Shown here one piece after another: positions 2,690 to 60,887 of a stretch of DNA of 64,000 nucleotides. The notes under the pieces are model-generated. The model saw only the letters and a list, made by a program, of their open reading frames with translations. It searched no databases and was not told the DNA's origin. Origin of the DNA: Azolla caroliniana. Its lineage: Eukaryota; Plantae; Polypodiophyta. The translations under genes were made by a program, and so were the position numbers. Numbering within the stretch: position 1 is the first letter of the stretch; the number at the start of each line of letters is the position of its first letter. The DNA lies in contig JBHGNT010000002.1 of NCBI GenBank assembly GCA_043228905.1, positions 186,001 to 250,000 of the forward strand. Direction: 5' to 3'.

Positions 2690-5600
2690 CACAAAAATCC
2701 GATATCACACGAGCCAGGTATGAACATTTTAATTTACATACTAGCTCTTCTCAACTCACTCCTCAAATTTGGTAATTTCGTCATGTCTCTCGACCTGAGT
2801 TTTAAAATCTTGATTTTTTAATTCGATATCATAGATAGCGTTGTTAGCTTCAATTCGCATTTTTGAACACAAAAATCCGATATTACACGAGCCAGGTATG
2901 AACATTTTAATTTACTCAAGGGCTCCTCTCAACTCACTACTCATGTTTACTAATTTCGTCATGTCTCTCGACCTAGGTTTCAAAATCTTGATTTTTTAAT
3001 TCCATATCATAGCTAGCGTTGGTAGCTTCGATTCGCATGTTTGAACACAAAAATCCGATATCACACGAGCCAGGTATGAACATTTTCATTTACCCACTAG
3101 CTCCTCTCAACTCACTCCTCAAATTTGGTAATTTCGTCATGTCTGTCGACCTGAGTTTAAAATCTTGATTTTTGAATTCCATATCATAGCTAGCGTTGTT
3201 AGCTTGGATTCGCATGTTTGAACACAAAAATCCGATATCACACGAGCCAGGTATGAACATTTTCATTTACCCACTAGCTCTTCAGAACTCACTCCTCAAA
3301 TTTGGTAATTTCGTCATGTCTCTCGACCTGAGTTTTAAAATCTTGATTTTTTAATTCCATATCATGGCTAGCGTTGTTAGCTTCGATTCGCATCTTTGAA
3401 CACAAAAATCCGATATTACACGAGCCAGGTATGAACATTTTAATTTACTCAAGGGCTCCTCTCAACTCACTACTCATGTTTGCTAATTTCGTCATGTCTC
3501 TCGACCTAGGTTTCAAAATCTTGATTTTTGAATTCCATATCATAGCTAGCGTTGTTAGCTTCGATTCGCATGTTTGAACACAAAAATCAGATATCACACG
3601 AGCCAGGTATGAACATTTTCATTTACCAACTAGCTCTTCTCAACTCACTCCTCAAATCTGATAATTTCGTCGTGTCTCTGGACCTGAGTTTCAAAATCTT
3701 GATTTTTCAATTCCATATCATAGCTAGCGTTGTTAGCTTCGATTCGCATGTTTGAACACAAAAATCCGATATCACACGAGCCAGGTATGAACATTTTCAT
3801 TTACCCACTAGCTCTTCAGAACTCACTCCTCAAATTTGGTAATTTCGTCATGTCTCTTGACCTGAGTATCAAAATCTTGATTTTTTAATTCGATATCATA
3901 GCTAGCATTGTTAGCTTCAATTCGCATGTCTGAACACAAAAATCCGATATTACACGAGCCAGGTATGAACATTTTCATTTACCCACTAGCTCTTCTCAAC
4001 TCACTCCTTAAATTTGGTATTTTTGTCATGTCTCTCGACCTGAGTTTCAAAATCTTGAATTTTCAATTCCATATCATGGCTAGCGTTGTTAGCTTCGATT
4101 CGCATGTTTGAACACAAAAATCCGATATCACACGAGCCAGGTATGAACATTTTAATTTACCTACTAGCTCTTCTCAAGTCACTCCTCAAATTTGGTAATT
4201 TCATCATGTCTCTCGACCTGACTTTCAAAATCTTGATTTTTCAATTCCATATCATAGCTAGCGTTGTTAGCTTCGATTCGCATGTTTGAACACAAAAATC
4301 CGATATCACACAAGCCAGGTATGAACATTTTAATTTACCTCCTAGCTCTTCTCAACTCAATCCTCAAATTTGGTAATTTCGTCATGTCTCTCGACCTGAG
4401 TTTAGAAATCTTGATTTTTTAATTCGATATCATAGCTAGCATTGTTAGCTTCAATTCGCATGTCTGAACACAAAAATCCGATATTACACGAGCCAGGTAT
4501 GAACATTTTCATTTACCCACTAGCTCTTCTCAACTCCCTCCTTAAATTTGGTATTTTCGTCATGTCTCTCGACCTGAGTTTCAAAATCTTGAATTTTCAA
4601 TTCCATATCATGGCTAGCGTTGTTAGCTTCGATTCGCATCTTTGAACACAAAAATCCGATATCACACGAGCTAGCTATGAACATTTTAATTTACTCAAGG
4701 GCTCCTCTCAACTCACTACTCATGTTTGCTAATTTCGTCATGTCTCTGGACCTGAGTTTCAAAATCTTGATTTTTGAATTCCATATCATAGCTAGCGTTG
4801 TTAGCTTCTATTCGCATCTTTGAACACAAAAATCCGATATTACACGAGCCAGGTATGAACATTTTTATTTACTCAAGGGCTCCTCTCAACTCACTACTCA
4901 TGTTTGCTAATTTCGTCATGTCTCTCGACCTGAGTTTCAAAATCTTGATTTTTGAATTCCATATCATAGCTAGCGTTGTTAGCTTCGATTCGCATGTTTG
5001 AACACAAATATCCGATATCACACGAGCCAGGTATGAACATATTAATTTACTCAAGGGCTTCTCTCAACTCAGTCCTCAAATTTGGTAATTTAATCATGTC
5101 TCTCGATCTGAGTTTCAAAATCTTGATTTTTCAATTCCATATCATAGCTAGCGTCGTTAGCTTCGATTCGCATGTTTGAACACAAAAATCCGATATCACA
5201 CGAGCCAGATCTGAACATTTTAATTTACTCAAGGGCTCCTCTCAACTCCCTCCTCATGTTTGCTAATTTCGTCGTGTCTCTCGACCTGAGTTTCAAAATC
5301 TTGATTTATTAATTCCATATCATAGCTAGCGTTGTTAGCTTCGATTCCCATGTTTGAACACAAAAATCCGATATCATACGAGCCAGGTATGAACATTTTA
5401 ATTTACTCAAGGGCTCCTCTCAACTCACTACTCATGTTTGCTAATTTCGTCATGTCTCTCGACCTGAGTTTCAAAATCTTGATTTTTTAATTCGATATCA
5501 TAGCTAGCGTTGTTAGCTTCAATTCCCATGTTTGAACACAAAAATCCGATATCACACGAGCCAGGTATGAACATTTTAATTTACTCAAGGGCTCCTCTCA

Positions 5601-41069: not shown

Positions 41070-41362
41070 CTTCGATTGATGGTGCATGCTCTGAGATTTT
41101 TCGTTCATGTGGGCACTCTTGTTTGCCCATGTATGACTTCTACCAAAACTTGACTTTTGTCTTCATGTCTCTTTGCCTGTATTGGAAAACTCAGATTTCA
41201 TTGGTTCATATTGTAGCCTACATCGTTGGTTTCGATTCGAGAATTTGAACTCGGAAATCCGATATCATATGAGGACGCTATGAGCATTTTGGTTCATGTT
41301 GGCGCTCTTGTTTGCCCCTGTAATACTTCTACCAAAACTTTGCTTTGTCCTTCATGTCTCTT
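41070..41362. repeat. Relic of a related satellite with a 189-bp period (about 1.5 units)
   Basis: gttcatgt at 41103/41292, ttctaccaaaactt at 41138/41327 and cttcatgtctc at 41161/41350. Segment 41231-41290 (ttcgattcgagaatttgaactcggaaatccgatatcatatgaggacgctatgagcatttt) aligns without gaps to positions 1-60 of the 178-bp monomer. Confidence 0.8.
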
Positions 41363-41707
41363 AACAGAGCGTTGTGAGAAGAACATTACTGTGAGTAAAG
41401 CAGTATAGAGTTTCTGTTGTGTAGAGAGCGTAAAAGAGAATAAGCCAGAGAGTGATAGAGGTTCCATAGCTGAGTGAGGTTAGACGCCAAGAGCCCTACG
41501 TGGTTGATGCACTCTGTACAGAGAATGTTGTATTCTGATCTCATCTTGTATTCTTTGTTGTATAGTGGATCTTTGTTGCTGTGGTTTTTCCCGGTTAGGG
41601 TTTTCGACGTAAAACTGTGTACTGTGCATATTTGTCTATTTTGCTATTTTCTATTCCACGTTGTGTCTTTCTCACAGATTTACGATCCCACCTCAACACT
41701 TTCAACA
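41363..41707 (+). mobile_element. Truncated orphan LTR fragment (Copia-like U5)
   Basis: gtggtttttcccggttagggttttcgacgtaaaac resembles the U5 motif of the Copia B LTR (gtggtttttccctctcagggttttccacgttaaac). It ends in ...ttcaaca, with no PBS or TSD found. Confidence 0.55.
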
Positions 41708-42277
41708 ACCATGGGTAGAAATTTCTCATTAGTATATGTTTGCCTGTTTTTAGCCTACTTAGAAAATTAGCAAACAATACCTCCTCAACTCATGTTTTTG
41801 ACCAAGTATATCAACGTTACGTTTGGTATATGGGAAGTGTTGAGCGAGCAAGCTCAATCGCATCCGGATCGGCTGAATAAGCCAAACCCGGATCGGTGTC
41901 CGCAACGGAGAACCGGATCGGTGTACGGTTGATATCTGGAACCAGGAGCCGGATCGGATTGAAACAAGTAGGCCGTTAGAGGCCTACGGATCCAACCTAG
42001 TACTTAGGCATATCTTTGGGAGTTAGTGTCAGTCGCTCGTATGAGCATTGATGTACCTGTCATTACTTCTGTCAGTCCTTTATGGACTTGTATAAAATTG
42101 CTCTCTGAGCACATTCTATGTACAAAATATTGAGAGTATTATTTTGAATTGAGGTATGTTTATGTTCTGTCTCTCCTGTGTACGCGTACTCTTTGTGTGT
42201 GTTAACCTTTCTTCTCATCTTCTATTGCTATCTGGATGAGCCGGTTTGTCGAACGCTTTCGCACGTTTACTTTGAAA

Positions 42278-42289
42278 TGGTATGAGAGC
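42278..42289 (+). other. Primer binding site of Copia A (tRNA-iMet type, 1 mismatch)
   Basis: tggtatgagagc versus the canonical TGGTATCAGAGC, just after the LTR end. Confidence 0.8.
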
Positions 42290-42382
42290 ACGAGGGTTGA
42301 GAACCTCTGCAGCCGACAGACGCTTCGAAGAAAAACCCTAATAATCGGCAACAACAGATAGAGAACCGAAATGGACAGAGGT

Positions 42383-43151
42383 ATGGCAAGCTCGCTTCCC
42401 ACAGAAAAGCTCGACCGGAGAAACTATGCATCCTAGTCATATAAATTGCACCAGTACTTGTTGGAGCATGGATATTGGAGCTATGTGGAAGGAGCCAACA
42501 AGGTAGCACCGGACCCGGCACACAAGGACTTCCCAACATGGGAGCAAGGAGCGAGCAGAGTATTGTACTACCTTGCATCCAGTGTGCACGATCAGATGCT
42601 CAGCTACATCAAAGATGCAAAAACGCCAGAGGCCTAGGAAAATCTCTGGAAGATTTTCGCCGCTAGTACCATGGCACGGAAGTTGCAGCTCTGACAGAAG
42701 TTCCGGACCCTCCACAAGCAGGGGGAGTCAAGTCGGAGCCGGAAACCGGAAGTTGAAAACCAACACGGAATGCTTGTATTGTGGCATGAAAGTCCACAAA
42801 GAGAGTGAGTGCTGGAAGAAGCGTGCCGATTCGGATAAATCCGGATCCGGCAAGGCCGGACAAGGGAACTGGCAAAGCTCGCACTACGCTGAAGGATCAA
42901 AAGGATCCGGAACCGGGAAAACCAGAAAGGGGCCAACCTTTGTGATGAAACACAAGGTCAACTTGATGAAGAAGACCACTTCTGGACCGGAGGAAGTGTG
43001 GTACGTTGATTCCGGAGCATCTAACCATATGACGAGCCATGAAGAGTGGTTCTCGTTTTTAGAGAAACCGGAACAACCGGGGAATGTCGAAACCGGAGAC
43101 GACACCCCTCACCCAATTGTGCATCTCGGAGAAGTCCCTTTAGGCCATGTT
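42383..43151 (+). pseudogene. Copia A gag and protease (stops, internal deletion)
   Basis: MASSLPTEKLDRRNYAS*SYK...; zinc knuckle CLYCGMKVHKESEC; protease motif WYVDSGASNHMT. Confidence 0.9.
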
Positions 43152-43741
43152 TGTTAGGAGACAGTTCCCTCCGGATTGGAAGTGAGAAGAACCGGATGAG
43201 GAGGACCCGGCTACGTAAGACCCGGTGAGAACCGGATGTGGTGTACCCAGCAAGCGCCGGATGATGCAGGCCCGGTGAGGAGTGCTCACCGGATGAAGGG
43301 ACATATTCGTAAATATGTTTCTGAGAGTCCATCGGGGCTATATTTGTAAATAGCCGAAAAGTCATATTAATATAAATATGACTTAGGGCAAACTCAGAGG
43401 CTGTGAAGTTGTCATTCTTGTTGGTGCAAGAAGAGAGAGCGCGTAACAGTGTACAGAGAGAGAGAGAGAGGTCGTTGCCTCTATTGTAACCGCCGCCTAT
43501 GGTGAAGATCGTGAGCACGAGGTCGTTGCCTCCGTGAGCTCACTATTGTAATCATTGTAATATAGTGATAGTTTGGAGTCTATGGACTCCCGTGGTTTTT
43601 CCCTCTCAGGGTTTTCCACGTTAAACATAATGTGTACTCTTCTCTCCTTTGTGTCGTGCGTTTCATTTCCCGTTTTCTCTGTATGATTCTAAACTCGGTT
43701 GTGGCCGAGCGTTGCACATAGAGAGCGTGCAGTTCCTGTCA
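43152..43741 (+). repeat. Copia B 5' LTR (590 bp)
   Basis: TG...CA termini; direct repeat of 54104-54760 apart from a 65-bp unit and a 2-bp GA difference. Confidence 0.96.
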
Positions 43742-43772
43742 AAGTGGTATCAAAGCGAGGCAACACAGAAAA

Positions 43773-44464
43773 ATGGACGATTCATTGGGAGGCATGTTCA
43801 AGCTCACCGGCTCCAACTATTAAGTGTGGAAGTCGAAGATGAGAGACATGCTCGTGGTTAAAGATCTTTGGCTGCCGGTTCAGTTCAGGGTCAAGAGATC
43901 GGACAAAATCGATGCCACGATATGGGAGGTGATGCACATGAAGACAACAGCCTACATACAGTGCTTCATCGACATGAGCCTATACAACAACTTCAATGAA
44001 GAGAGCAAGGCTCATGAGCTCTAGGAGAAGATCGGCATTATGTTTCAGAACAAAAATGTTGTTAACCAGGTTTCGGTATTCCGGAAGCTAGTAAGACTCC
44101 GATACCAAGATGGCTCCAGCATGGCGGAGCACATGAATGCCTTCCAGGGGCTGATACACCAGGCAACATCATTGGAAGTACCTCTCGCCGATGAGGTACT
44201 ACCGCTACTCTTGCTCAATTCCCTCCCGGATAGCTGGGAGACGTTGGTTGTCACTTTGGGCAACGCCGGGCCGGAAGGGAAACGGTTATCCCTGGCAAGA
44301 GTGAAGTCAAGCTTGCTAGATGAGGAGGCGCGTCGGAAAGATAAGGATACGAGCTCCGACTCCAAAGCGCTCCTTACCGAATCAGAACACGGAAGACAAA
44401 GGAATCGTAGTCCCCAGAACCGGGAAAAGTCGGGGACATGGTCAAAGTCAAGGGGGAGGCCTAC
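43773..44464 (+). pseudogene. Copia B gag (5' part, in-frame stops, interrupted by element C)
   Basis: MDDSLGGMFKLTGSNY*VWKSKM...LLLNSLPDSWETLV. After removing C it continues GRP|TCFYCGKQGHFQKNC (zinc knuckle at 50125 onward). Confidence 0.9.
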
Positions 44465-44557
44465 TGTCAGGAACAGTACTAAGACAGAGAAGGAATTAGT
44501 ACTAAAAGAAGTATTAGTACTAAGAGAGGTGAAGAACTCTCGAGAGAAGGAAAGAGT

Positions 44558-44588
<31 letters not shown>

Positions 44589-44878
44589 TGATGATAAGAA
44601 AATATATATATTATGTGAAGAAAATGTACAATAGCTAGGAGGCTTAAGACTGGCGTTGAACCGATTTGGTTCGAAATAATGCCTTGTGCCTCCTTTTATA
44701 GTGTTCTAAGGAATACTCCTGAAGTTTCTAGAATGTTCCAAAGAAATCTGGAATATACATCAATAAAACATAAATGAAAATAATATTTTATGTATGTATT
44801 ACAATGTATAGTCTAATGGTCAAGAGCTCGACCCATGTAGTATAAGGTCATGGGTTCGAGTCTTGCCATATCATGACA
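44465..44878 (-). repeat. Element C 3' LTR (414 bp, contains a (GA)n tract)
   Basis: Direct repeat of 49680-50119; about 6 substitutions outside the microsatellite (manual count). Confidence 0.96.
44809..44870 (+). promoter_or_regulatory. tRNA-like Pol III A-box/B-box module in the LTR of C (second copy at 50050-50111)
   Basis: TAGTCTAATGG at 44809 and GGTTCGAGTC at 44853, at tRNA spacing (T8 to G53 = 45 nt). Confidence 0.6.
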
Positions 44879-47800
44879 CTATTCCCCCTTTAAAACGACG
44901 AGTGTAACGAGTCGTTTTGGATTGAGGACCCGGTTTGTCTAGATATTGACGATGGAAGTCTTCAAGAAGAGCACGAGCATTGGTGACATTCTCTATCGGT
45001 TCCCAAGTACGCTCGCTGGGACTATATCCTAGCCAGTCGATTAGATAGTAGAGCTTGTTGCGAACAAGCTTGGAATCAAGGATGGCGGCAACCTCGTACT
45101 CAAGTCCATCTTCAAGCTCGATCGGGGGTGGAGGCTCTGTAATACGTCCTGGGATGGTGCTTTCTTGATAGGGTTCGAGGAGAGAACTATGAAACACCGG
45201 ACGTATCCGAAGTTGTGGAGGTAGATCAAGACGAACAGTGACATCATTAATCTTTTCGATAATATGGAAAGGACCTAATCGCCGATAATCCAACTTCTCG
45301 CATGGGCGCGTAGTCTTGATGTGTTGTCGGAGTAGCCATACCCGATCTCCAATGTTAAAACTAGATGGGAGTCGATGACGATCCGCATAAACCTTGTGTG
45401 TTTGTTAAGCTTGTTGGAGATGAGTAGATAAATCTGCTTGTATCTTGCGTAACCTCTCCAAACGATCCTCTGCGCAAGGATTTGTGGACACCTCTAGGGT
45501 TTCAAGTACACACCACCGGGGGTGACATCCCGTATAAGCATAAAATGGCGTAACTTTCGTGGATGCATGGATAGAGTTGTTATAGGCAAATTCGGCGAAG
45601 TGGAGAATATCTGCCCAGTCATCCTAATGATAGCTGAGAAAGCACCGCAGATACTGCTCCAGCGTTTGATTGGTTCATTTGGCTTGGCCGTCGGTTTGTG
45701 GGTGGTAGCCGGAGGAGAGGTTACAAGTGACCTTGAGCATGTTAAAAAGGTGCTTCCAGAATTTTGACACGAACTGGGGTCCATGGTCACTGATGATACT
45801 ATCGGGAAGTCCATGATGCCGACATACTTCACGCATGACAATTTCAGCAGTGTCTTCACTGGAGATCTCCTTAGTACATGGCAAGAAATGAGCGATCTTC
45901 GTATATCGATCGACCACCGTTAGAATCGCATTGAACCCCTTAGAGACTCGAAGATCTGTGATGAAGTCTAGAGCAATGGATTGCCACGGCTTGCTTGGAA
46001 TTGGTAATGGTTCTAATAAACCATATGGATGATGCCTTGGCATTTTCGCTCTGCAACATGTATCACAAGTCCGAACAAAATCCTCGACAAATTGTCCCAT
46101 ACAAGGCCACCAGAATGATCGTTGTACTAAGTGTAGTGTTTTAGTACTACCAAAATGCCCAGTTGTATATGTGTCATGACAGTTTTCTACTACTTGAAGG
46201 CGGCAAGAACCATTAGGAACATACAAAAGTTCTTTAAAGAAGAGTAATCCATCATGGTATTTGAATTGCCGATAGTCCGTACCTGGTGGTTGCGACTGTG
46301 AACACAACGCTCGAGAGAGATCAATTTGTGCTAGTATAGCTTGGGCGAACGCATATGTCTTCAAGTCTTCGCGTATGATATCGATAACGCGGGAATCCAT
46401 GGGCATGTCAAAGATCTTTGTTGCTTGTAGTCGTGTCGGTCCCAAGATGACTTGTTTTTGGTTATCGAAAGTTGGCTCGTCGGGACGGGGTGCTAGGTAC
46501 GAACGCCATGATAATGCATCGGCCTTCCCTTGGTGCTTCCCCAAACGATATGTAATTCTGAAGTCGAAATGCGTGAGGAAGTGGGCCCACCGAGCTTGAC
46601 GTCGATTCAACACACGAGCATCTTGAAAGTAGGCAAGGTTCTTGTGGTCACTAAATACGGTGACCAGATGAGAGGATCCCTCCAGAAAATGCCTCCATTG
46701 CATAAAAGAATCCACTATTGCCAATAGCTCCTTATCATGAATTTCGTAGTTGATTTCGGCGGCGTCAAACTTGCGTGAGTGAAAAGCCACAGGATGTAGC
46801 TTCTCATCATTCCCCTGTTGTGACAGAATGCTCCCCAATGCAAAATCCGATGCGTCAGCTTCGATAATAAATGGTTTTTCCGGATCAACATGAGCTAGAA
46901 TTGGAGCCAATGTAAATGCCTTTTTAAGACTCTCGAAAGCCACATCCGTTTCTTCAGACCAAATGAACGGTTGTCCCTTCCTGGTAAGTTGTGTGAGAGG
47001 TAGAACGATCTTTGAGTAATCTTGTATGAACTTCCGGTAAAAATTGGCAAAGCCTAGGAAGCATTGCACATCCCGCACCGAACGTGGAGTCTGCCATTCT
47101 ACCATTGTTTTGACCTTAGCTGGGTCCATGGAGATGCATTCTGACGAAATGATGTAGCCGAGAAATTCCACTTGGTTGCACCCGAAATTACATTTTTCCA
47201 GCTTTGCATACAGACCATGTTCTCGAAGTCGTTTTAGTACTAATAGTACATGAGAATCATGTTCTTCTTGGGTCTTTGAATAAACCAGTAGATCATCCAA
47301 ATAGATGATCAAACAATCATCCAATAGATCTCAGAATATATCATTAGCCATGTGCTGGAAGACTGTCGGTGCATTAGTGAGGCCGAACGGCATGACCGTA
47401 TACTCGAAGTGCCCATATCTGGTGTGAAACGCGGTCTTCCATTCGTCTCCTGGTCAGATCCGTACGAGGTTATATGCTCCTCGTAAGTCGATCTTCGTGA
47501 AGAACCTTGCACCATTGATCCATTCTAAAAGACTTGAGATAAGGGGAAGAGCATACCTATTCCTGATTGTAACCTTATTCAGGCCACGGTAATCTACAAC
47601 AAGACAAAGCGATCCATCCTTTTTCTTGACAAAGAAAATGGGCGCGCCGGGTGGAGATTTCGAATGTCGGATGAAACCATTTTCCAAATTCTCCTCTATA
47701 TAGGCCCGAAGGACTTCCAGCTCGGTTGGTGACAAATTGTAGATCGGTCCCCATGGCGGCTCTTTTCCCGGTTGTAAATCGATGGGGCAATCGTACGGTC

Positions 47801-48467
47801 GATGATGAGGAAGTGTGTTGGCTTGTACTTTATCGAACACATCGGCGTAATGACGATACTTCTCGGGAAGTTGAACGGTGGATCCTTCTTTAGTGGTGCT
47901 GGAGGGGTTTACTGATATTGCAAAGAGGAACATTTCCTCCTTGTGCCCTTCTTTACGCAACTGACGTAGAGAAATGGTTGCCATCTTCTGAGTTGACCCT
48001 TGGGTTTGTCGACACCGGATTTCTCTTGTTCTCCAATGTATGTCTGGTTTATGTAAGTCGAACCACGGAAATCCTAAAACTATGGGATGTTCTAGGATAC
48101 TAATAATATTAAATGATATTACACATGCTAAGTTATCTAGGACAATATTAATGGGCTCTGACACTTCTATGATATTTCCGGAAGCAATGGGACGTCCATC
48201 AATGACTACTACAGAGGCTGGACACTGGAGTTTTCTTAGGGATATATTATGAGCTTGAGCAAATTTCTTATCCATAAAGCAAGAGTTAGCTCTAGAATCT
48301 AGGAGTGCTAGGACATGTACTAGAGGGGTACTTTTAGTACTAACTATTACTTGGGCTACGAACACATCACTAACTTGCTTAGAGGGAATGGAACCACTAA
48401 TGGGCTGCACAGATCTAGGGCTATCCAACCAAACGGCTCCTATTTTGGTTGGACTTAGTCGTTTAAC
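44871..48467 (-). pseudogene. Element C pol: protease, RT, RNase H, integrase, chromodomain (a few stops and a frameshift)
   Basis: LLDSRANSCFMD (protease), FTKIDLRGAYNLVRI and IYLDDLLVYS (RT), EADASDFALG and YEIHDKELLAIV (RNase H), H..H..CDTC and IISDHGPQF (integrase), YEVAAILDSK...YLIDWLGYSPSERTWEP (chromodomain). Confidence 0.95.
48424..48467 (-). promoter_or_regulatory. Putative -1 ribosomal frameshift signal (slippery G TTA AAC plus stem-loop)
   Basis: (-) strand reads GTTAAAC gactaa g TCCAACCAAA ataggagccg TTTGGTTGGA; the -1 frame is open directly into pol. Confidence 0.8.
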
Positions 48468-49606
48468 TCTTCTTCTAACTGACTAAGGACATCAAATCTG
48501 TTTGCAAGATCTAGGCTATTAGTACTATTAGGACTATCAGATATCCCTACTGAAATAGGCTCGGGTTTAGTACAATTAGAACTAGCGACTATTTGGTTTA
48601 CCTGTCTTCTTGGCCTATGGGGGCAGTTTATTGCAATATGTCTTGGTCCACCGCAGTAAAGACATAGTCGATTTGTACGGCGTCGCTGCTTTTCTTCTTC
48701 GGATAATGGCCCTCGACAACGTGTAGTGTCAATCTCCATCGGAGTCGGAGTATTCGCTGGAGGCGCATTATATGACTCCCTCGGAAAAGGTCTTTCTACC
48801 ACTGAGGCGTAGGTGAGCTCTGATCGTGCCCTCGGCATCTGTAGTTGTCGTTCCGAACGTCGCTCAAAGAGGCGGTTGTCACATCTCACCGTGCGACTGA
48901 TTGCTTCTGTTAAGGACTTTGGCTCTTCGGGGAAGGTCAAGAGTAAATCCTTGACGTCGTTGCGTAAACCATAACAGAATTGCTCCATCAACGCTTGATC
49001 ATCCCAAGGGATATCAGCGGCGAGTAGGCGAAAATCTGCAGCATATGCGGAGGCTGGACGGTCACCTTGGTGTAATCGCCGAATTTTGTTGATTGCGGTC
49101 TTGATGCTGTCAGTATCTCCGAAACATGCTTTAAACTCACCTAGAAACTCTTCAAAATTGTTGAGTAACGGGGATTCCTTTTCTAATAGTGGAGCGAACC
49201 ATGCCAACGTTGAGCCACTTAACAAAGTGCCTACTAAACCCACTCGTGATGCATCGGTGGGATACCGAGAAGGATGCATTTGAATAACTAATCGTACCTG
49301 GTTAAGGAACCCTCTAAACTGCGATCGCGTTCCATCGAACTTTGTGGGAAGGCCAATCTTGGGTTCTTTATGAATCCCTTGTGTTCCGGGCCCTTGTTGT
49401 TGCATCGCTACGATGGTTGCTTCGAGTTGTTGCACGCGTAACGCAAGTTCCCCATGTTGTTGTTGCGTTTGCTGCTTTTCTAAGGAGATTTGTTGAAGAT
49501 CCCCCAGCAACCGTTGGTTTTCTTGTTCCAAAGCATGGAACTTCTCTTTCAAGCATTGAAATTCCGAGAAAACAGATTGATATTCTTCAGCGCTAACAAT
49601 GGCCAT
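48455..49606 (-). CDS. Element C Gag (uninterrupted 383-aa ORF; coiled coil, capsid, CCHC knuckle)
   Basis: KFDGTRSQFRGFLNQV (sushi/PEG10-like capsid), PTPMEID and RRRTNRLCLYCGGPRHIAINCP. Confidence 0.9.
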   Translation of the reverse strand: MAIVSAEEYQSVFSEFQCLKEKFHALEQENQRLLGDLQQISLEKQQTQQQHGELALRVQQLEATIVAMQQQGPGTQGIHKEPKIGLPTKFDGTRSQFRGFLNQVRLVIQMHPSRYPTDASRVGLVGTLLSGSTLAWFAPLLEKESPLLNNFEEFLGEFKACFGDTDSIKTAINKIRRLHQGDRPASAYAADFRLLAADIPWDDQALMEQFCYGLRNDVKDLLLTFPEEPKSLTEAISRTVRCDNRLFERRSERQLQMPRARSELTYASVVERPFPRESYNAPPANTPTPMEIDTTRCRGPLSEEEKQRRRTNRLCLYCGGPRHIAINCPHRPRRQVNQIVASSNCTKPEPISVGISDSPNSTNSLDLANRFDVLSQLEEELND

Positions 49607-49665
49607 GGGATGAAAGAAAAGAGGAATAAGAGATTAGTAGGAAATGAGAGAGACAGAAGGTAGGA

Positions 49666-49677
49666 AAATCGGTTCAA
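49666..49677 (-). other. Non-tRNA primer binding site of element C (self-priming type)
   Basis: TTGAACCGATTT lies 2 nt after the 5' LTR and is the exact complement of AAATCGGTTCAA at 49908-49897 in the LTR. Confidence 0.8.
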
Positions 49678-49679
49678 AC

Positions 49680-49795
49680 TGTCAGGAACAGTACTAAGAC
49701 AGAGAAGGAATTAGTACTAAAAGAAGTATTAGTACTAAGAGAGGTGAAGAACTCTCGAGAGAAGGAAAGAGTGAGTGAGAGGGAGGGAGAGGGAG

Positions 49796-49832
<37 letters not shown>

Positions 49833-50119
49833 TGATAAGAAAATATATATATTATGTGAAGAAAATGTACAATAGCTAGGAGGCTTAAGACTGGCGTTGA
49901 ACCGATTTGGTTCGAAATAATGCCTTGTGCCTTCTTTTATAGTGTTCTAAGAAATACTCCTGAAGTTTCTAGAATGTTCCAGAGAAATCTGGAATATACA
50001 TCAATAAAACATAAATGAAAACAATATTCTATATATGTATTACAATGTATAGTCTAATGGTCAAGAGCTCGACCCATGTAGTATAAGGTCATGGGTTCGA
50101 GTCTTGCCATATCATGACA
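49680..50119 (-). repeat. Element C 5' LTR (440 bp; TATA box near 49941)
   Basis: Direct repeat of 44465-44878; the longer GA-rich tract accounts for the 26-bp length difference. Confidence 0.96.
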
Positions 50120-51432
50120 CCTACTTGCTTCTATTGCGGCAAGCAGGGACACTTCCAAAAGAACTGTCGGTATTTCCGAATAGACAAGGAAACCGACGGT
50201 ACCGATTCGAAGCGGACACCGGACCGGACCGGAAGGGAACGGCGCGGCAATCGCGGCAAGTGAAGAAGAGTTGATGCTCATCACCGAGGAGAGTGAGCTA
50301 AACCTTGTCGGCGACGAGATGACCTGGGTGGTCGAATCCGGAGCGTCGTTCCACCTTACCCCGGACCGGTTTAGGGTGTGTCCGGATGGGGAATGAAGGT
50401 ACATGCCGAATTGTCGGCATAGGAGATGTGTGATTGACAACACCAACCGGATGCAAGCTACTGCTGAAGGATGTCTGACACGTTCCGAAGGTTCGACTGA
50501 ACTTGATATCAGCCGGTCAACTAGATGATGAAGGCTACACGGGTAGCATCCAGAATGGTGTTATGAAGTTCAGCAAAGGGAGCCTGATTGTGGCTCGAGC
50601 CCGGAAGGTAAACACGTTGTACTTGATGAATGCCCGGTTATGTCCGAAAGAAGTGAACATGGCATCCGACACTACCGGTGAGCTGTGGCACAAAAGGTTG
50701 TGTCACATGAGCGAGAAGGGGATGAAGAGGCTTGCAGACGAAAACCTCATTCCAGTGAAGAACATGCACTTGGAGAAGTGCACTGATTGTCTGGCCGGTA
50801 AGCAAAACCGGACCTCCTTCCGACCAAGGCCACCGATGAGACGTAATGCACCACTGGAGTTGGTGCATACTGATGTGTGTCAAGTGGACACGAAGTCACA
50901 TGCAGGATCGCAGTACTTCGTGACGTTCATAGATGACCACAGCCGGAAGCTGTGGGCCACACCGTTGAAGACGAAGGATCAGGTGTTATCCGTCTTCAAA
51001 GAGCTCCACGTGAGAGTGGAAAGAGAAAACGGCCGGAAGCTGAAGGCGGTTTGAGCAGACAACGGAGGTGAATATCGGGGGCAGTTCGAGGAGTACTGTC
51101 GCTCGAAGGGAATCCGGCTCGAATTTACCATGCCGAAGACGCCGGAACTAAACGGGCTGGCCGAGAGGATGAACCAGACCATAATGGAGAGGGTCCGGAG
51201 TATGCTGGCGCATGCAAAATTACCCAAGAAGTTTTGGGCTGAGGCACTGTCGACGGCGACATATGTGATAAACAGATCACCCTCACTACCCTTGGACGGA
51301 GACACGCCGCAAAGAGTATGGACTGGTAAGGAAGTGTCCTACCGGCAACTGAAGGTGTTCAGGTGTCTCATGTACGTGCATGTTGCTAAGGACGGGAGAG
51401 GAAAGTTAGATCCAAAGACCCGGCCATGCATA

Positions 51433-52115
51433 TGACGGGAACCCAACGTTCCTTATGCGCAACGCTCGGCCACAACCGAGATTCTTTTCATACACAGAAA
51501 ACAGGAAACGAAACACAGGACACAAAGGAGAGAAAGATATACGCACACTACACATGAGGTTTACGTGGAAAAACCCCAAACTAGGGGAAAAAACCACGGC
51601 AGCCCACAGGCTACAAACTGTCACTATGTATGAATGTACAAAACAGTGAGTTCACGAAGGCAACGACCTCGGACTCACGATCTTCGCCACAGGCGGTGGT
51701 TACAATAGAGGCAACGACCTCGTCTCTCTCTCTCTCTCTCTATACAGTTACGCACTCTCTCTTCTTCTTGCACCAACAAGGAAGAATGACAACAACAGTT
51801 ACTAAAAGTTTGCCCTAAGTCATATTTATACTAATATGACTTTTCGGCTATTTACAAATATAGCCACGATGGGCTCTCATAAACATATTTATGAATATGT
51901 CTCTTCCTCCGGTTCATACCGGGTCTGCACCATCCGGCTCTCCGTAGCCGAGTACTCCTCATCCGGTTCGTACCGGGCCTGCACCATCCGGCTCTCCGTA
52001 GTCGGGTACTCCTCATCCGGTTCGTACCGGGCCTGCACCATCCGGGTCTCCGTAGCCGGGTACTCCTCATATGGTTTCTTCTCCCTTCCCATCCGGAGGG
52101 ACCTGTCTCTCAACA
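51433..52115 (-). mobile_element. Solo LTR D (683 bp), a relative of the Copia B LTR, antisense in the B integrase
   Basis: TSD GCATA at 51428-51432 and 52116-52120. On (-) it starts tgttgagagacaggtccctccggatgggaag and ends gttcccgtca, like the B LTR. Removing it restores RPCI|FLGY. Confidence 0.95.
51905..52068. repeat. Three 54-bp tandem units in U3 of solo LTR D
   Basis: tactcctcatccggttcgtaccgggcctgcaccatccggctctccgtag repeated; 18-aa periodicity in the ORF track. Confidence 0.9.
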
Positions 52116-54103
52116 GCATATTCCTTGGTTACGGCGACGATGAGTTCGGCTACCGAGTGTGGGACCCGGTCGACAAGAAGGTATTCCGGAGTCGAGATAT
52201 TATCTTCATGGAGGACAAGACACTCGCCGACTGGGAGTCGGAGAAGAAGATAATGAACTTTGAGTCAACTGGTAAGGATCGATTCTACGATGATCAGACC
52301 CAACCGGCAAGAGACCGGTTAGCACTCGGGGAACCAGCCGATTACGGTGAGGATATCAAACCGGCTGAAGAAGAAGTAGAGGAAGTTGTAACCGAAACCA
52401 GCCAAGACCCCGAATCGGATTCAGATGAAGAGCAAATGGAGGAGCCGGTTACCGAAGCCCAAAGACGGAGATATCCTCTCAGAGAGAGAAGGGCCCCCCG
52501 GAGATTTCGGGATGCAGAGCATGTGCTGCTGACCGATGAGGAGGAGCCAGAAAGCTTCGAGGAAGCTAAAAGTGACGCCCACAACCGCAAATGGTTAACT
52601 GCCATGCATGATGAGATGGATTCCCTGCATGAGAACCATACGTACGAATTGGTGGAGTTGCCGAAAGGAAAGTGGGCATTCCAAAACAAGTGGGTGTACA
52701 AGTTGAAACTGAGAGATGCCGGCAACCCCCCGAGATACAAAGCCGGGATCGTGGTGAAGGGGTTCCAGCAAAAGAAGGGCGTGGACTTCGACGAGATATT
52801 TGCCCCGGTAATAAAGATGACCTCCATCCGGACGGTGCTGAGTATAGCGGCAAGCATGGACCTCGAGGTAGAGCAGCTGGATGTGAAGACGGCATTCCTT
52901 CACGGTGACCTCGAAGAGGAGATTTACATGCAGCAACCGGAAGGTTTCGTGAAGAAAGGGAAGGAGCACCTGGTTTGCCGGTTGAAGAAGAGCCTCTACG
53001 GGTTGAAGCAGGCCCCCCGACAATGGTACCGCAAGTTCGACTCCTTCATGACCGATCAAGGGTACCACAAGATGCAGGCCGATCACTGCGTGTTTGTGAA
53101 GAAGTTCGAAGGAGGCGACTTCCTGATACTCCTTCTGTACGTGGACGACATGTTGATCATCGAACGGGACCAAGCCAAAATACGGATGCTAAAGAAGGCT
53201 CTCAATCGAACCTTCGCAGTGAAAGACTGGGGATGCATATCATCCGGAACCGGCCAACGAAGTAGTTGTGGCTGTCATAGGAGAAATACGTGACAAAGGT
53301 GCTTCAACGGTTCAACATGTTAGAAGCGAAACCGGTCGGATCGACACTCCCGGAAAACTGCAAATTATCCGGTAAGCAAAGCCCGAAGACGAAAACAGAG
53401 AAGGTTGATATGATGAAGGCTCCATACGCCTCTGCCGTCAGGAGCTTAATGTACGCAATGGTGTGTACCCGACCGGATATAGGATACGCAGTCGGAGTGG
53501 TGAGCCGGTTTATGAGCAATCCCGGCAAGGAGCATTGGAATGCGGTCAAGTGGATACTCCGATACTTGAAGGGCACTTAGAACATGTGTCTCCGATTCGG
53601 CTCCGGTAAACCTCAACTTGACGGTTTTACCGATTCGGACATGTCAGCTGATGTGGATACCAGCCACTCTACATCCAGGTATGTAATGACATATGCAGGG
53701 GGAGCCGTTTCGTGGCAGTCGAGGCTGCAGAAGACGGTTGCGTTGTCAACCACGGAGGTGGAGTACATGGCGGCTGTGGAAGCCGGCAAGGAAATACTAT
53801 GGATGAAGGACTTCATCGGAGAGCTCGGTATCCGGCAAGATGAATACCGGCTCTATTGCGACAGTCAAAGTGTCATCCACCTTGCTAAGAATGCGGCCTA
53901 CCATTCCCGGAGGAAGCATATCCAGCGAAGGTATCACTGGATCCGGGAAAGAGTAGATGACCAGGAGTTCGCGCTGATGAAGATCCACACGGTCGAGAAC
54001 GGGTCAGATATGTTGACCAAAGTACTGGTACCCGACAAGTTGGATACATGTCGGAAGCGGATCGGACTGGTAAGACATCCCATGCCAGAGTGAAGGGGGA
54101 GTT

Positions 54104-54760
54104 TGTTAGGAGACAGGTCCCTCCGGATGGGAAGTGAGAAGAACCGGATGAGGAGGACCCGGCTACGGAAGACCCGGTGAGAACCGGATGTGGTGTACCC
54201 AGCAAGCGCCAGATGACGAGTACCCGGCTACGGAGGACCCGGTGAGAACCGGATGAAGCGTGCCCGGCAAGCGTCGGATGATGCAGGCCCGGTGAGGAGT
54301 GCTCACCAGATGAAGGGACATATTCGTAAATATGTTTCTGAGAGTCCATCGGGGCTATATTTGTAAATAGCCGAAAAGTCATATTAATATAAATATGACT
54401 TAGGGCAAACTCAGAGACTGTGAAGTTGTCATTCTTGTTGGTGCAAGAAGAGAGAGCGCGTAACAGTGTACAGAGAGAAAGAGAAAGAGGCCGTTGCCTC
54501 TGTTGTAACCGCCGCCTGTGGCGAAGATCGTGAGCACGAGGTCGTTGCCTCCGTGAGCTCACTGTTGTAATCATTGTGATATAGTGATAGTTTGGAGTCT
54601 ATGGACTCCCGTGGTTTTTCCCTCTCAGGGTTTTCCACGTTAAACATCATGTGTACTCTTCTCTCCTTTGTGTCGTGCATTTCATTTCCCGTTTTCTGTG
54701 TATGATTCTAAACTCAGTTGTGGCCGAGCGTTGCACATAGAGAGCGTGCAGTTCCTGTCA
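54104..54760 (+). repeat. Copia B 3' LTR (657 bp)
   Basis: Follows the PPT; carries an extra 65-bp unit at 54211-54275 relative to the 5' LTR. Confidence 0.96.
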
Positions 54761-54765
54761 ATGTT

Positions 54766-57700
54766 GGACAAAAGGGAAAGCTGATGAACATATTACATGT
54801 TTCGGCTATCACAAAGAACCTGCTATCGGTCGGACAAATAGTCGATCAGGGGATGCAGGTGCGGTTTACGCACCTCGGGTGCTTCATCAAGGAAGAAGGC
54901 TGGATAATTGTGCAAGGGCGCAAAGAAGGGAGGATGTTCATCCTCAACACAAATGACGTCAGCACCACCACGTTTGCCAAGGACAGAAGATTGAATCGGA
55001 CATCGATCTCTGGCATAAGCGGATCGGCCACGTCAACTACTGGAGGCTTCAGGACCTGCAATCGAAATAGGTTGTGTTCGGTTTGCCGAAATTCAATAGC
55101 CAGAAGGCCCAAATTTGTGAAGCCTGCCAACTCGGGGAGCAACACCAGCTTCTATTCCCCACCGAACGAAACCAAAGCTGTAACAAGCTTGACTTAATCC
55201 ATTTGGATATATGGGTACCGGCACACAAGAGTCGATATTTCGTCTCCTTCATTGATGACTACAACCGGCACACGTGGATCAACCTCATCGAGAAGAAAAG
55301 CGAAGTCTTCGACTATTTCTGGAACCTTCAAAGCTTAGTCGAAAGTGAAACGGGGAGGAAGATCAAGTGCATGCAGTCAGATGGCAGAAAGGAATACTTT
55401 TCCGGCAAATGCAACTGTTATCTGCAACATGATAGAATTCGGAGAGAACTCAGCTATCGATACACACCGGAACAAAATGGTGTGGCCGAGAGAAAGAACT
55501 GGTTGATTGTCGACGCGGCAAGGGCAATGCTGGAGGAAAAGAGCACGCCCAAATTCTACTGGGTTCAAGCGATCCGGACGGTCGTCTACATCCAAAACCG
55601 GATCGGAGACAAGGAGTCTGCACACGAGCTATATTTCGGGCGCAAGACGAATTTGAGGCACCTTCGGATATTCGGTAGCATAGCATATGTGCATGTACCG
55701 GATGAGAAGTGGAGGAAGTTGGATCCGAAGTCGGAGAAGTGCATCTTAGTCGGTTACTCGCATGAGTAGAATCGGCATCAGGGTACTTTCTACCGACTCC
55801 AACTTCCGACTCCGACCCGATTCTTGAAGATTAGGCTAGTGAGCCCGAAGAGGTCCAGGTAGAAAATGAAGATTTTGGTACTCTAGATGAGAGTTTGATC
55901 TCATTTCGGCTAAGTGGGCTGAATGAGCGGCTAAGTCAAGATGACCAGTCTGATGAAGAACCGCGCAAGTAGTGGAGACTCTGTCGTGCATACATGACTA
56001 AGGTGGCGGAAGTGCGTGAGCCGGAGAGCTACACAGAAGCAGCAAAAGACGCAAATTGGCATGCTGCTATGGAGGAAGAAATGTGGGCACTTGATGCCAA
56101 TGACACATGGAACCTGGTTGACCCTCCCCGATAATGTAAACCGATCGGATGTAAGTGGGTATATAAGGTGAAGTACAATGTCGACGGTTCGGTCAATCGG
56201 TACAAGGCCCTATTAGTGGCAAAGGGATATGCGCAAACCCACGGAATCGACTACGACGAGACCTTCGCTCCGGTAGTGAAGATGACGACATTTCATGTGG
56301 TACTAGTTGTTGCTACGGCAAGGGGATGGCATCTTCACCAAATGGACGTGAAGAATGTGTTTCTTCAAGGTGACCTTGAAGAACGGGTCTATATGATCCA
56401 AACCCCTGGATTCCAATCGGAGATGAACAAGTCGGTAGTATGCCGACTCAAGAAGTCGTTTTACGATCTAAAGCAAGCCCCCCGAGCTTGGAATGCGAAG
56501 ATCATGCACTGGTTGCGTAATATGGGGTTTGCGGCCTCAAAGTCCGACTCTTGCTTGTTCATCCGGAACGGTCCGGAACGGTCCAGTGTGCATCCTGCTA
56601 TATGTAGATGATTTAGTCATCACCGGACCGTGTGAAGTTCCAGATGTCGGACGCATTTGAGATGAAGCACCTAGGGGACCTTCATTATTTCCCTGGGATC
56701 GAGGTGATCCGGACCCCCGACGGCATATTGCTCTCACAACGTCATTATGTGTTGAATATGTTGTACAAGTTCAGCATGACGGAATGCAGACTGATCTCTA
56801 CACCCCTAGATGGGAACCTGAAGCTACATCCCAACTCCGGACCGGTCTGCGATGAGAAACAGTTCCGACAAATTGTCGGGAGCCTTATATACCTGGCGAT
56901 CACCCAACCCGACATTAGTTATCCAGTCGGGGTGATCAACCAATTCATGCAGAAGTCGGCCGTTGATCACCTTCAGTGCGCACACCAGATACTCTGATAT
57001 GTTAGTGACGCGAAGGACCAGGGACTGTTATACCGACACGGTATAACTGAAGAGCTAGTCGGATACACCGATTCTAACTGGGCCGGTGATGCATCGGATC
57101 GTCGATCCACCTCCGGTTACATGTTTTCTCTAGGTAGCGCGGTTGTTGCGTGGAGCAGCAAAAAGCAACCGACAGTGGCTTTGTCGAGCATTGAGGTTGA
57201 GTACCGGAGCGCTACCAATGCCACCTGTGAAGCCATTTGGCTTCGACGACTGCTGCATGACCTCCGGATCGAGGTCCTGACCCCGATCCTGATCTATTGT
57301 GACAACATGAGCAGCATTCAGCTCGCCAAGAACCATGTATTCCATGCTCAGACAAAGCACATAGAAGTGCATTATCACTTCATGCGTAAGCGGGTCCTGA
57401 GCGGTGAAGTTGAACTTCGACATGTTCAGACGGATCAGCAAATTGCAGATATCTTCACCAAACCGCTTGGATTGGACAAGTTGCAACACTTCACTGAAAT
57501 GCTCCGTGTTCAGCATCTCGACGTGCCGCACTTGAGGGGGAGAATAGGAACGGGAACGGATGGCACCAAACAAGGAACCAGAGAGGAAGAAAGAACAAAG
57601 GGGGGAGATAAGCAGAAAAAGGAAGCCGAGTCGACCGAAGGAGTCGGCATCCGAACAAGTCGAAGCAACAGCAGCGGTGGTAGAGTCAAGAAGGACAAAA

Positions 57701-57939
57701 CCGACCGGAAGAAGGCCAAGACCCGGACGTGGTCTGATGTGGTGAAGGGGCTAAAAACGGAAGACGAGTTGGAGACTACCAACTCAAACAAGAGTTGGAA
57801 CGAATCGGAGGCAGCCCGATTTGGTTCAACAGATGGATTCGGAAGAGCCAGATCTACTAAAGGCCAAGCGGACACGAACGCAACGGAAGTTGACGCCAAC
57901 ACGGAGGAGCCGACGGGTCGACAAGCACCGGAGTCGTAG
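54766..57939 (+). pseudogene. Copia A integrase, RT and RNase H with a C-terminal extension (multiple disablements)
   Basis: ICEACQLGEQH, FIDDYNR, TPEQNGVAERKN, HQMDVKNVFLQG, YVDDLVITG (across a frameshift), WSSKKQPTVALSS, KHIEVHYHF and QIADIFTKPL. Confidence 0.93.
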
Positions 57940-58166
57940 CAGCGAGGGAGCTGAAATGGGCCTATTGAGCAAACAAGCCGACCGAGAAGGTCGAGGTGCG
58001 CGAAACCGGGCAAGTCGCAGGAAGCAAAACCGAACCGGGTGAGGAGCGTGAGCAAGGCAGGAGGACACCAGAAGGAGTTGGACGGAAGAACTGGCTACCA
58101 CAGAAACTGATACCACGATCCGACCTCAAGTTGAGCTTGAGGGGGAGTGTTGAGCGAGCAAGCTCA

Positions 58167-58371
58167 GATATCAGGATGGCCCCAGCATTACGGCATATCT
58201 GAGCGCCTTCCAGGGACTGATCAACCAAACCATCTCGTTGGAAGTATCTCTAGCCGACGAGGTATTAGCATTACTATTGTTGGGATCCCTTCTGGGCAGA
58301 TGGGATATTCTCGTTGTCACATTGGGCAACGCCGGACCGAAAGGGAAGCACTTATCCCTAGCAAAGGTGAA
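58167..58371 (+). mobile_element. Isolated gag fragment of a Copia B-family element
   Basis: Aligns with 44101-44305 (EVSLADEVLALLLLGSLLGRWDILVVTLGNAGPKGKHLSLAKV versus EVPLADEVLPLLLLNSLPDSWETLVVTLGNAGPEGKRLSLARV). Confidence 0.9.
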
Positions 58372-60887
58372 TTACATTGGTTTCACATTTGGGTACACAC
58401 GCATGTGTATGTTTGGGCTTCAAAGTCGATGTTTAAAGCAATTGTATCACTTCTTGTTTGAATGGCTTTTGGGGTTTAATTTTCTTGCTTTTTGAAACTT
58501 AGTTATTAGCATCACTTTCATTACACTAGCATACATCACAAGTGAATGGACTCAATAAATTGTAGTACCCGTTGGGTGAAAAAGTTGAAGGAAAAAAAGA
58601 AAAAAATATTGTAATCCTAAAGGATGTGAAAGTGCAGTGAAAGGCAAAGAATGGAGTGGAATGCAAGGTAAGGAAAGGCACAAAAAACGGATATAAAAGG
58701 CTCTTATACTTTTATAATAAGTAAGATTAACTATATACTTTTCCATCTTCATCAAGTTGGCCTTTTTCTTTATTGAAATCATGGGTGGAGCACATTACCA
58801 CAAACATTCTATTATGATGCGTATGAACAAGAAGAAGACGATGAAGAACATTAAAACATTGTTAATGAAAAAGTATCATCATCATCACCCCCTTGGGCAT
58901 TATGAGCCTTAGAGACATATTTATGTAAATGGAGTACATTTTCATCATGGTCATCGCCGCTTATCACATTCCCCAAGTTGTAGCAATATTATTGATATGA
59001 ATTATATAATAAATGGCCTTGTGAGTCCATGAACTACGATACTTTAAAGAGACCATGAAAAAAGGTTCCTCGTTGTCGTCATCCTCACCCTCATCATCAT
59101 CATCAACAACCCCACCATTATCGTAATGATCATGTACAAGCATTCTCATATGTGGAAGCGTGAAAGTCGGGATCGCAGTCCATCACTAGTACCTCCCAAT
59201 GCTTCAATCATATCATATGATGATATATTGACAAAGCAATTTCCACAACATGGTATTATAAACATTGGAGCAACTTGCCATCATCATGGACATTGCAACC
59301 AAAAGCTTTCTCAAGTATGCTCATCTATAAGTTAAGTGCGTGATATGGTCTTACCACACCTCACGGGAGGATAACATCAATGTTGAAAATTATAAAAATC
59401 TGTCAACACCACCACCTAACAATAATATTGTTGGATCAACCTCTCCTTGTGGCATCTATCCTCTCAATGATGTCCGAGGTCTTTCTTATACCCCACCTAC
59501 TTCCAACGTTGGCATGGCCCCATTTGGTCGTGCTATGAACCTAATTGATATCATTGGCCCTTCACATGCCCCCTACCTACAACTAATTATGTTGACAATT
59601 TAATCATATTTCTAAATTAGAAAGCTAATGAGATATACATAACGTCTCATAAAAGATAAACTATTGTTGGAAGAAGCCTAATTTGAAAAGTTACTTTAAA
59701 ACCTATATGTTTTGGAAATTTGGATACCAAAGGTTTGTCAGTCTAAAAGGCACTCATGCATTCAAGACAGTTATTACTTTCTTAAGGCTATAAATTTGGA
59801 AAGCTATCTAAATCCTAATTTTCCGGAAATTGCCACATTGTCTAGAATGTCTATGAAGGCAATGTAGCAATATATTTTTCATATTAATAAACTAGTGCTG
59901 GTAAGCCCAAATATCGCAATTGCATTGGCACGAAAGTAGCTGTACGGCAAAGTTTCCACTGAGCCAAATTTGGTGGGAACCACAACCGAAATAAATGTAT
60001 TATTCGTTTAATTTCTGTGAGATGTTCTACCCCTTGCATATGTCTATATCATAGACATTACAGCAAATTTGTCTTTCCTCTAGAGTCCTAGGTCAACAGT
60101 TTATGGTTAAGGTGCAAAATTTAGATCAATGTGTTTAAAAAACAGAATGTCCTGATGGTTTGAATTTCAGCCATTCCTGCTTAATGCTTCCCGAAGACAA
60201 AGAGTGTATATCTTGAGAAGCGAAAACAAGCTCCTGTGTGCAGCTAAAATTAATTAGGAATACTTGCACAATCCAAATGACAAAACACTTCCACGAGTTT
60301 CATAATTTACAAACTTGGACTATGATTGAAACAATGGTTATATTTCACTAACGAGGCAGTATGCGTAATCATATTTTAATGGAGTCAATTAAGAAGCTAA
60401 ATATGTGACCATCAACTCTACTTCTGTACAAGTCATAACCTGGGTGTCAAATGAATTTTCAGTCTTTTGGGAGGAGATTATGAAACGACAAAGGGCAAAG
60501 CAATGACTTTGACCTCTTTGTTTAATTAATAATGAAATAGAGCAAATGTAAACATCGTGGGCAGCTCACACCGAAAAACAGAGAACTCTGAATAAAAGGG
60601 CTCTTGCAGTAACTCATCTAGCTCCCTATGTAGAACACTGATCTCTTAGAGCAGGGAAAAGACATAGATACATATTAAGCTGGTAGCTCCTACATAGTCC
60701 ATGATTTACAGATGCATTTATTTCCAAGATGGAGATTACCCTTAAGTTATTTATCAAGATGGAACATACAAAGTGCTCATTTCCCATTCATTGTAGAGCA
60801 AGTTTTACATGCACCCTAATCATAGCTCTGGCCCTCCATCATACCTATGGAAAGAATCGTGCTGGCCACACCTCGTTTCTACGGGCA

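Follow-up and report, generated by a model that had tools for sequence, protein, structure and literature searches.

Both LTRs of a chromodomain-encoding Ty3/gypsy element in the window (the whole stretch of DNA that was analysed, 64,000 nucleotides) carry, at the outer end of U3, a tRNA-derived module with an A box and a B box, read on the plus strand and antisense to the element. The module is real and conserved: the boxes, their spacing and an AT-rich upstream stretch persist across families with 55–93% identity in the chromodomain region, and the tRNA fold is lost. From these features we infer its function. Judging by sequence, the selected property is probably the binding of proteins to DNA as a Pol III type-2 promoter, and such a promoter, facing out of the element, may act as a chromatin boundary.

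The chromovirus and its setting

The element lies on the minus strand at positions 44465–50119 of the window, is 5.6 kb long, with LTRs of 414 and 440 nt, and has the following features:

44460–44464 and 50120–50124, no strand: target-site duplication CCTAC, flanking the element
44465–44878, minus strand: 3' LTR, 414 nt, TG...CA
44871–48482, minus strand: pol, in one frame, with five in-frame stops in the window copy
44879–44891, minus strand: polypurine tract
48455–49633, minus strand: gag ORF (PF03732, PF19259)
49665–49679, minus strand: primer-binding site (PBS) complementary to the start of R, not of the tRNA-3'-end type
49680–50119, minus strand: 5' LTR, 440 nt, TG...CA
49897–49908, minus strand: predicted self-primer at the start of R
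49935–49941 (5' LTR), with its 3' LTR copy at 44694–44700, minus strand: TATA box of the predicted Pol II promoter

The pol domains comprise reverse transcriptase, RNase H, integrase, SH3 and chromodomain, the protease-like part and the start of the reverse transcriptase having been assigned by eye. The chromodomain matches HP1-type structures and contains the Y/W/Y residues of an aromatic cage (read by eye). The integrase ORF crosses the polypurine tract and stops at a TGA in the LTR terminus TGTCATGA (44871–44878; in the window's subfamily), and the polypurine tract is therefore coding. Six substitutions and one 26-nt microsatellite indel (counted by eye) separate the two LTRs, which are ~98.5% identical outside the indel. 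The family is very abundant, with 2,027–5,394 contigs per run over one 561-nt stretch, and a search of viral contigs with the integrase found no relative.

The chromovirus is inserted into a copia-like element (GAG-pre-integrase and rve are encoded in the flank), at a distance of 3.4 kb from an array of a 178-bp satellite. Nested copia-like elements surround it at 41340–44464 and 50120–59000, with related LTR-like repeats at ~43.3–43.7, 51.4–51.9 (inverted) and 54.3–54.8 kb. The array fills positions 1–41040 (~41 kb), its units match at 85–89% and, from 19.7 kb on, there are signs of a higher-order repeat of ~1333 bp; should the host be a non-seed plant, a centromere-like satellite with such a unit would merit attention.

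Self-priming and affinity to Tcn1

In all three sequences examined that have both sites (the window, L006 and L017), 12 of the 13 tested bases of the PBS are complementary to the start of R, and these three PBS/R pairs differ from one another by matching changes. The chromovirus is thus predicted to prime itself, which supports the earlier proposal that it needs no tRNA primer. In run X1, 24 contigs have the PBS of the window as a loose end.

The motif at the start of R (window 49890–49912 and the LTRs of the clade described below) is the most conserved stretch of the LTR (identity 0.82; shuffled 0.50). It forms a small GAACC/GGTTC hairpin, contains GGTTCAACGCC, a B-box-like string on the sense strand, and is altered in L005, L006 and L008, in L006 jointly with the PBS. 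The TATA box stands 26–39 nt ahead of this motif in all 10 families.

According to the account cited (PMC6317226), the Tcn1 clade, which belongs to non-seed plants, is recognised by self-priming and by a chromodomain with an aromatic cage. The Ty3/gypsy domain order with a C-terminal aromatic-cage chromodomain and, by sequence complementarity, the self-priming PBS, all Tcn1 features, are present here. By these features the element appears to be Tcn1-like; the tree described below comprises related metagenome loci and the window.

An antisense A- and B-box module in both LTRs

The module and its surroundings comprise:

44759–44808, plus strand: AT-rich stretch of 50 nt (86% AT) leading up to the A box; a CAA lies 7 nt ahead of T8, and TFIIIB is predicted to land here
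44809–44819, plus strand: A box (tRNA positions 8–19), TAGTCTAATGG, in the 3' LTR, antisense to the element
44845–44862, plus strand: variable-loop AGGTC (44845–44849) and T-arm/B box GGTTCGAGTC (44853–44862), in the 3' LTR
44915–44918, plus strand: first TTTT after the 3'-LTR module, where Pol III is predicted to stop
50050–50111, plus strand: identical module in the 5' LTR, pointing out into the flank; A box TAGTCTAATGG at 50050–50060, B box GGTTCGAGTC at 50094–50103; first TTTT at 51232

A preliminary description of this DNA had reported A and B boxes at tRNA spacing, antisense and identical in both LTRs, and we reproduced both the coordinates (44809–44870 and 50050–50111) and the register. 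Counted from the B box in the class-I tRNA register, T8 and G52 are 44 nt apart and AGGTC occupies positions 44–48. No further A+B module was found on either strand of the 64-kb window. Their identity is in itself weak evidence, because the LTRs are nearly identical throughout. The TATA box lies ~108 nt from the A box and faces the opposite way; since the module faces outward, back to back with the TATA/R promoter, it cannot make genomic RNA, and this orientation rules out the accepted explanation, namely the driving of the element's own RNA.

tRNA likeness without a tRNA gene

ARAGORN detected no tRNA gene in the window, Rfam gave no tRNA match to the module at E ≤ 10, and four of the seven acceptor-stem pairs form, so the module is, as stated earlier, not a tRNA gene; a search of 39 other loci found a tRNA gene in none of them (0/39). 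The tRNA cloverleaf was also considered as the feature that is kept, and was ruled out by null covariation (179 of 500 shuffles as high) and by pairing close to that of shuffled sequences (55.4% of cells vs 54.1%). The anticodon stem is 40% paired across the modules.

A pattern derived from the module gave 21 matches in viral contigs, all 21 overlapping ARAGORN tRNA genes, and these span eight isotypes (Glu, Pro, Leu, Met, Trp, Gln, Asn and His). A tRNA profile was then built from 22 further real tRNAs of these viral loci, which the module pattern had not picked out, and run on the window and 80 related loci (231,894 nt in total). It ranked both window modules at the top (E 3.6e-4); its 11 best matches are all antisense modules of the clade or of the sister lineage L035. 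Profile, pattern and the conservation of the boxes (see below) uphold the earlier description of a tDNA mimic, that is, a tRNA-derived module resembling a Pol III type-2 promoter in a chromovirus predicted to prime itself. As regards a SINE insertion, 16–54 variable nt follow the B box, with no shared tail. The module presumably goes back to a single capture, in the ancestor of the clade, of a tRNA gene or of the head of a SINE.

Conservation across the clade

Of 492 metagenome stretches that encode a related chromodomain, the best 80 were taken as relatives, the module playing no part in the choice, and in a tree of these 80 loci and the window 28 rows form one integrase clade (support 100/99). 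Nine loci with <120 nt after the match were dropped (four in the clade and five outside it). A generic A+B scan behind the chromodomain gene, allowing at most three mismatches and assuming no LTR start, found an antisense match in 15 of the 24 clade loci and none on the sense strand (0/24); outside the clade one locus in 48 matched, and the other 47 are without a good A+B match. As for the nine clade loci that were missed, the module is lost in L013, broken internally in L002 and L045 and degenerate in L037, the stretch scanned in L064 was the wrong one, and the boxes of L003, L014, L018 and L019 are weaker. L013 is a natural control, in that most of the module is deleted (804–900) and the TATA box and R motif are kept. 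All clade loci come from nine assemblies of one accession series and probably represent one host group and one origin.

Twenty-one modules were aligned, with LTR starts and modules picked by eye, and the statistics are conditional on that choice. Among 12 lineage representatives, conservation reaches 0.85 at the invariant A-box positions, 0.93 at positions 44–48 and 0.89 in the B box, with 0.54 in the anticodon arm and 0.46–0.50 in the flanks; T8, G18 and G19 are conserved in 10, 11 and 12 of the 12 lineages, respectively. Box positions exceed the other positions by 0.27 (permutation p 5e-5), and the comparison of boxes with spacer across families, suggested beforehand as a check, thus favours the boxes. 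The distance from T8 to position 44 is 35–36 nt in 17 of 20 modules, and the B box stands 16 to 54 nt from the LTR end. Within the window's family, variants at ≥3% in run X5 fall in the 5' flank, the variable A-box positions, the spacer and, which counts against selection on the boxes, C56; the C56-to-T change makes up ~10% of depth in that run (contig depths, not copy counts) and occurs in four of the 21 aligned modules.

In the 10 families with long LTR stretches, identity is 0.65 in the module (shuffled 0.51) and 0.47 in the rest of U3 (shuffled 0.43), and the module lies 97–253 nt from the TATA/R promoter. These values bear on the possibility that the module is a neutral remnant, left from the capture of a tRNA or SINE long ago. 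A single origin, probably in one host group, and the loss of the module in L013 would agree with a relic, but the neighbouring U3 is at near-shuffle identity and ranges from 97 to 253 nt in length while boxes and spacing persist, and we regard this explanation as most improbable.

In all 10 families the 50 nt upstream of the module have a higher AT content than the remainder of U3, compared with 12 of 30 outgroup LTRs (a set from which two clade members were removed), and CAA occurs within 20 nt upstream of T8 in 12 of 20 modules; of the upstream and downstream Pol III features (AT stretch, CAA and T run), only AT-richness has a control. Plant tRNA genes are described as carrying an AT-rich upstream stretch (PMC11700998). 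Such a combination, boxes and an AT-rich upstream stretch but no fold, is what characterises Pol III type-2 promoters, for instance those in SINE heads and in the Helenus elements discussed below.

Some further observations concern the LTRs more generally. The middle of U3 has been swapped wholesale between families, between the same module and the TATA box: GCATGC/CACGTG-rich repeats are present in L016, L018 and L064, and TTCTAGAA repeats, which we take to be heat-shock-element-like, in the window, L005, L008 and L019. In L071, outside the clade, the LTR starts with an 8-bp perfect hairpin around a T-loop-like TTCGAAC (1809–1831), which makes a lone B box at the very LTR terminus. A role of the B box as a second PBS was rejected, since it stays GGTTCAAG in L005 and L008 though the R primer has changed (in L006 the PBS has changed as well). 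A W-box reading of the complementary TGACC was likewise rejected, position 48 being T in four of 20 modules.

The overlapping hairpin

One further feature overlaps the module:

44816–44869, no strand: 20-bp bulged hairpin, strong only in the window's subfamily

The long hairpin that had been reported together with the boxes exists in the window (all 20 pairs Watson-Crick; −27.1 kcal/mol; z of −5.2 and −6.8 for the plus and minus strands, respectively; 0 of 200 shuffles as good), but it does not hold as a conserved feature, with 37% Watson-Crick pairing in 12 distant families and covariation not above that of shuffles (57/500). It could be that the selected feature is a rod-like hairpin at the start of U3 and the tRNA likeness is incidental. 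Apart from the z values in the window, the two nearest loci retain 16–17 of the 20 Watson-Crick pairs, the common within-family variants cluster in the loop, and 67.6% of cells pair in the hairpin register vs 33–45% when slid, although much of this pairing is G-U and due to conserved columns. However, z ≤ −3 on the module strand is reached in only two of 20 modules, and in the distant families with little pairing the B box has at most one mismatch in 11 of 12. Selection on a hairpin is therefore very unlikely and largely refuted for the clade, and may play a role in the window's subfamily; the hairpin is best read as a subfamily addition, secondary to the module.

Putative function as an outward-facing Pol III-type promoter

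The tRNA-derived A and B boxes, retained antisense, at fixed spacing and at the outer edge of U3, would likely bind TFIIIC and TFIIIB, and the bound module would act as a chromatin boundary guarding the Pol II promoter of the LTR itself. At the 5' LTR, these factors would stand between the flanking heterochromatin and the Pol II promoter, ~100–250 nt inward, which would suit an element with an HP1-like chromodomain on its integrase, located 3.4 kb from a satellite array. The Pol III transcript would usually be short (~50–110 nt, from the A box to the first TTTT). In yeast, tDNAs and TFIIIC act as chromatin barriers. Taken as a whole, the reading that the module binds TFIIIC/TFIIIB and protects the LTR Pol II promoter as a boundary comes close to an even call, without quite reaching it; once binding is granted, a barrier or nucleosome-free zone is a fairly likely benefit. 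That this autonomous, heterochromatin-seeking lineage carries at each LTR edge a tDNA insulator of its own, directed outward and derived from a tRNA promoter that was captured and became a mobile TFIIIC barrier, we propose tentatively and with some doubt. A methylated, silenced LTR may bind no TFIIIC at all.

The same promoter could matter through its product. If it is active, a short antisense RNA, complementary to U3, to the polypurine tract and to the final part of the integrase ORF, would tune the activity of the element or feed small-RNA silencing. The promoter anatomy is complete, in 14 of 20 modules no more than 108 nt separate T8 from the first TTTT, CAA precedes T8 in the 12 modules mentioned above, and TTTT interrupts the A–B interval in one of 20 modules vs ~6 in shuffled sequences (a weak control, the sequences being related). 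The predicted 3' ends, however, are not conserved, lying inside the LTR in nine of 20 modules and being absent within ~400 nt in four, and an RNA from the 5' LTR would run into random flank (1.1 kb here). We consider it unlikely that the antisense RNA is what matters. The more specific suggestion of an antisense RNA reading into the chromodomain and integrase found no support for the window copy, in which 106 nt separate the A box from the first TTTT (44915) and the chromodomain is not reached, so that reading into the chromodomain by this copy is unlikely; read-through beyond 108 nt would be possible in six of 20 modules.

Two properties of the module speak against protein binding. Positions 44–48 are as conserved as the B box though they lie outside the canonical boxes, which would also fit pairing with a tRNA, and the same holds for the A–B spacing, which is stricter than TFIIIC would need. 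In genomic RNA, the module is the complement of a tRNA D arm and T arm beside the polypurine tract, and an annealed host tRNA would aid packaging, 5'–3' bridging or strand transfer, as in Ty3. The T arm and D arm of the Ty3 primer tRNA pair with U3 (PMC5371799), the antisense orientation at the 5' end of U3 is the one that such pairing needs, and the conserved block 44–58 is contiguous and extends past the B box. Against this, predicted self-priming leaves no tRNA 3' end anchored at the PBS, the conserved bases are mostly universal tRNA positions while the isotype-specific ones (49–50, 27–43 and 62–72) drift, and the AT-rich upstream stretch is not predicted by pairing, which we thus consider rather unlikely as the selected property. 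The preliminary description had overlooked this rival with the same signature, a Ty3-like pairing of tRNA to U3 (PMC5371799).

A last alternative is that the boxes recruit TFIIIB and TFIIIC as a landing pad, so that Pol III-targeting integrases, the element's own or others', insert beside the LTRs. The self-priming Tj1 integrates just upstream of tRNA genes (PMC4600332), and in L021 and L037 the similarity to other LTRs is lost upstream of the A box. The window copy, however, sits in a copia-like gene, neither the window nor any of 39 loci has a tRNA gene, and the loose ends upstream of the A box (24 of 671 and 13 of 70 rows) resemble homologous AT-rich variants rather than foreign termini; a landing pad is thus hardly likely.

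Returning to the boundary, how chromodomain-guided elements stay expressed in silent chromatin is, to our knowledge, an open question, and we know of little work on TFIIIC barriers in plants. If a mobile barrier is indeed what the module provides, the element would remain capable of expression at the places to which its chromodomain takes it, and would have seeded Pol III-factor sites in very large numbers through pericentromeric chromatin; given the abundance of the family, any TFIIIC binding would be genome-wide. The clade offers a clean test, with a 54-nt module that has natural gain, loss and box variants and is separable from the Pol II promoter.

Comparison with known systems

Tcn1 chromoviruses share with the element described here the Ty3/gypsy type, the chromodomain and predicted self-priming, and SM-Tcn1 resembles it in size (~5.7 kb, 440-bp LTRs and a 5-bp target-site duplication); unlike here, the available parts of the Tcn1 accounts mention no tRNA-like LTR module (PMC6317226, PMC2864245).

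The closest known relative of the module, missed in the preliminary description, is that of Helenus (TRIMp3), in which, as far as the published account was available, a tRNA-derived part that is mostly not a functional tRNA is present in both LTRs and conserved around boxes A and B, and in which AGGTC ahead of the T arm is likewise retained by the one plant family (Kojima 2024, PMC10886601). Helenus elements are, however, non-autonomous, non-coding, 311–1263 bp long and tRNA-primed, and the tRNA part is in sense (in two LTRs of the supplement) and proposed to transcribe the element (PMC10886601), whereas the element here is 5.6 kb long, codes for gag and pol, is predicted to prime itself and has a separate TATA/R promoter, with the module antisense and pointing outwards. 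Membership in Helenus was rejected, the element being neither short nor non-coding and having neither a tRNA-complementary PBS nor a sense-oriented module. In the parts of that account drawn on here, autonomous partners are expected not to share such LTRs, and "not a few" Repbase LTRs are said to resemble part of a tRNA, only TRIMs having been analysed (PMC10886601); the pattern seen here may therefore already be recorded among Repbase LTRs. Cassandra and Ajax also have a Pol III internal promoter in the LTR, as proposed here, but of the 5S type and in non-autonomous TRIMs, and Cassandra is transcribed from its promoter (PMC10886601).

An antisense tRNA promoter in the LTRs of an autonomous chromovirus was not found described in the literature searched, which covered few subscription papers and no Repbase reports, and to this extent the combination still appears to be new. 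With this module, the range of elements with Pol III modules in their LTRs widens from tiny non-autonomous ones to those that code for proteins. Among retroviruses, the U3-R of HIV-1 holds a tRNA-Lys3-like sequence, and HIV-1 uses that tRNA as primer. The bipartite PBS of Ty3 provides, as here, a tRNA-complementary U3 in an autonomous element, but Ty3, unlike the element here, primes with that tRNA (PMC5371799).

As boundaries formed by Pol III-type elements, the barriers of yeast tDNAs and TFIIIC and, in the account cited for them, the boundaries of mouse B2 SINEs, for which CTCF is named (PMC8136502 for B2), resemble the proposed module. Yeast tDNAs and B2 elements are host loci or SINEs, whereas the module here is a fixed part of an autonomous LTR.
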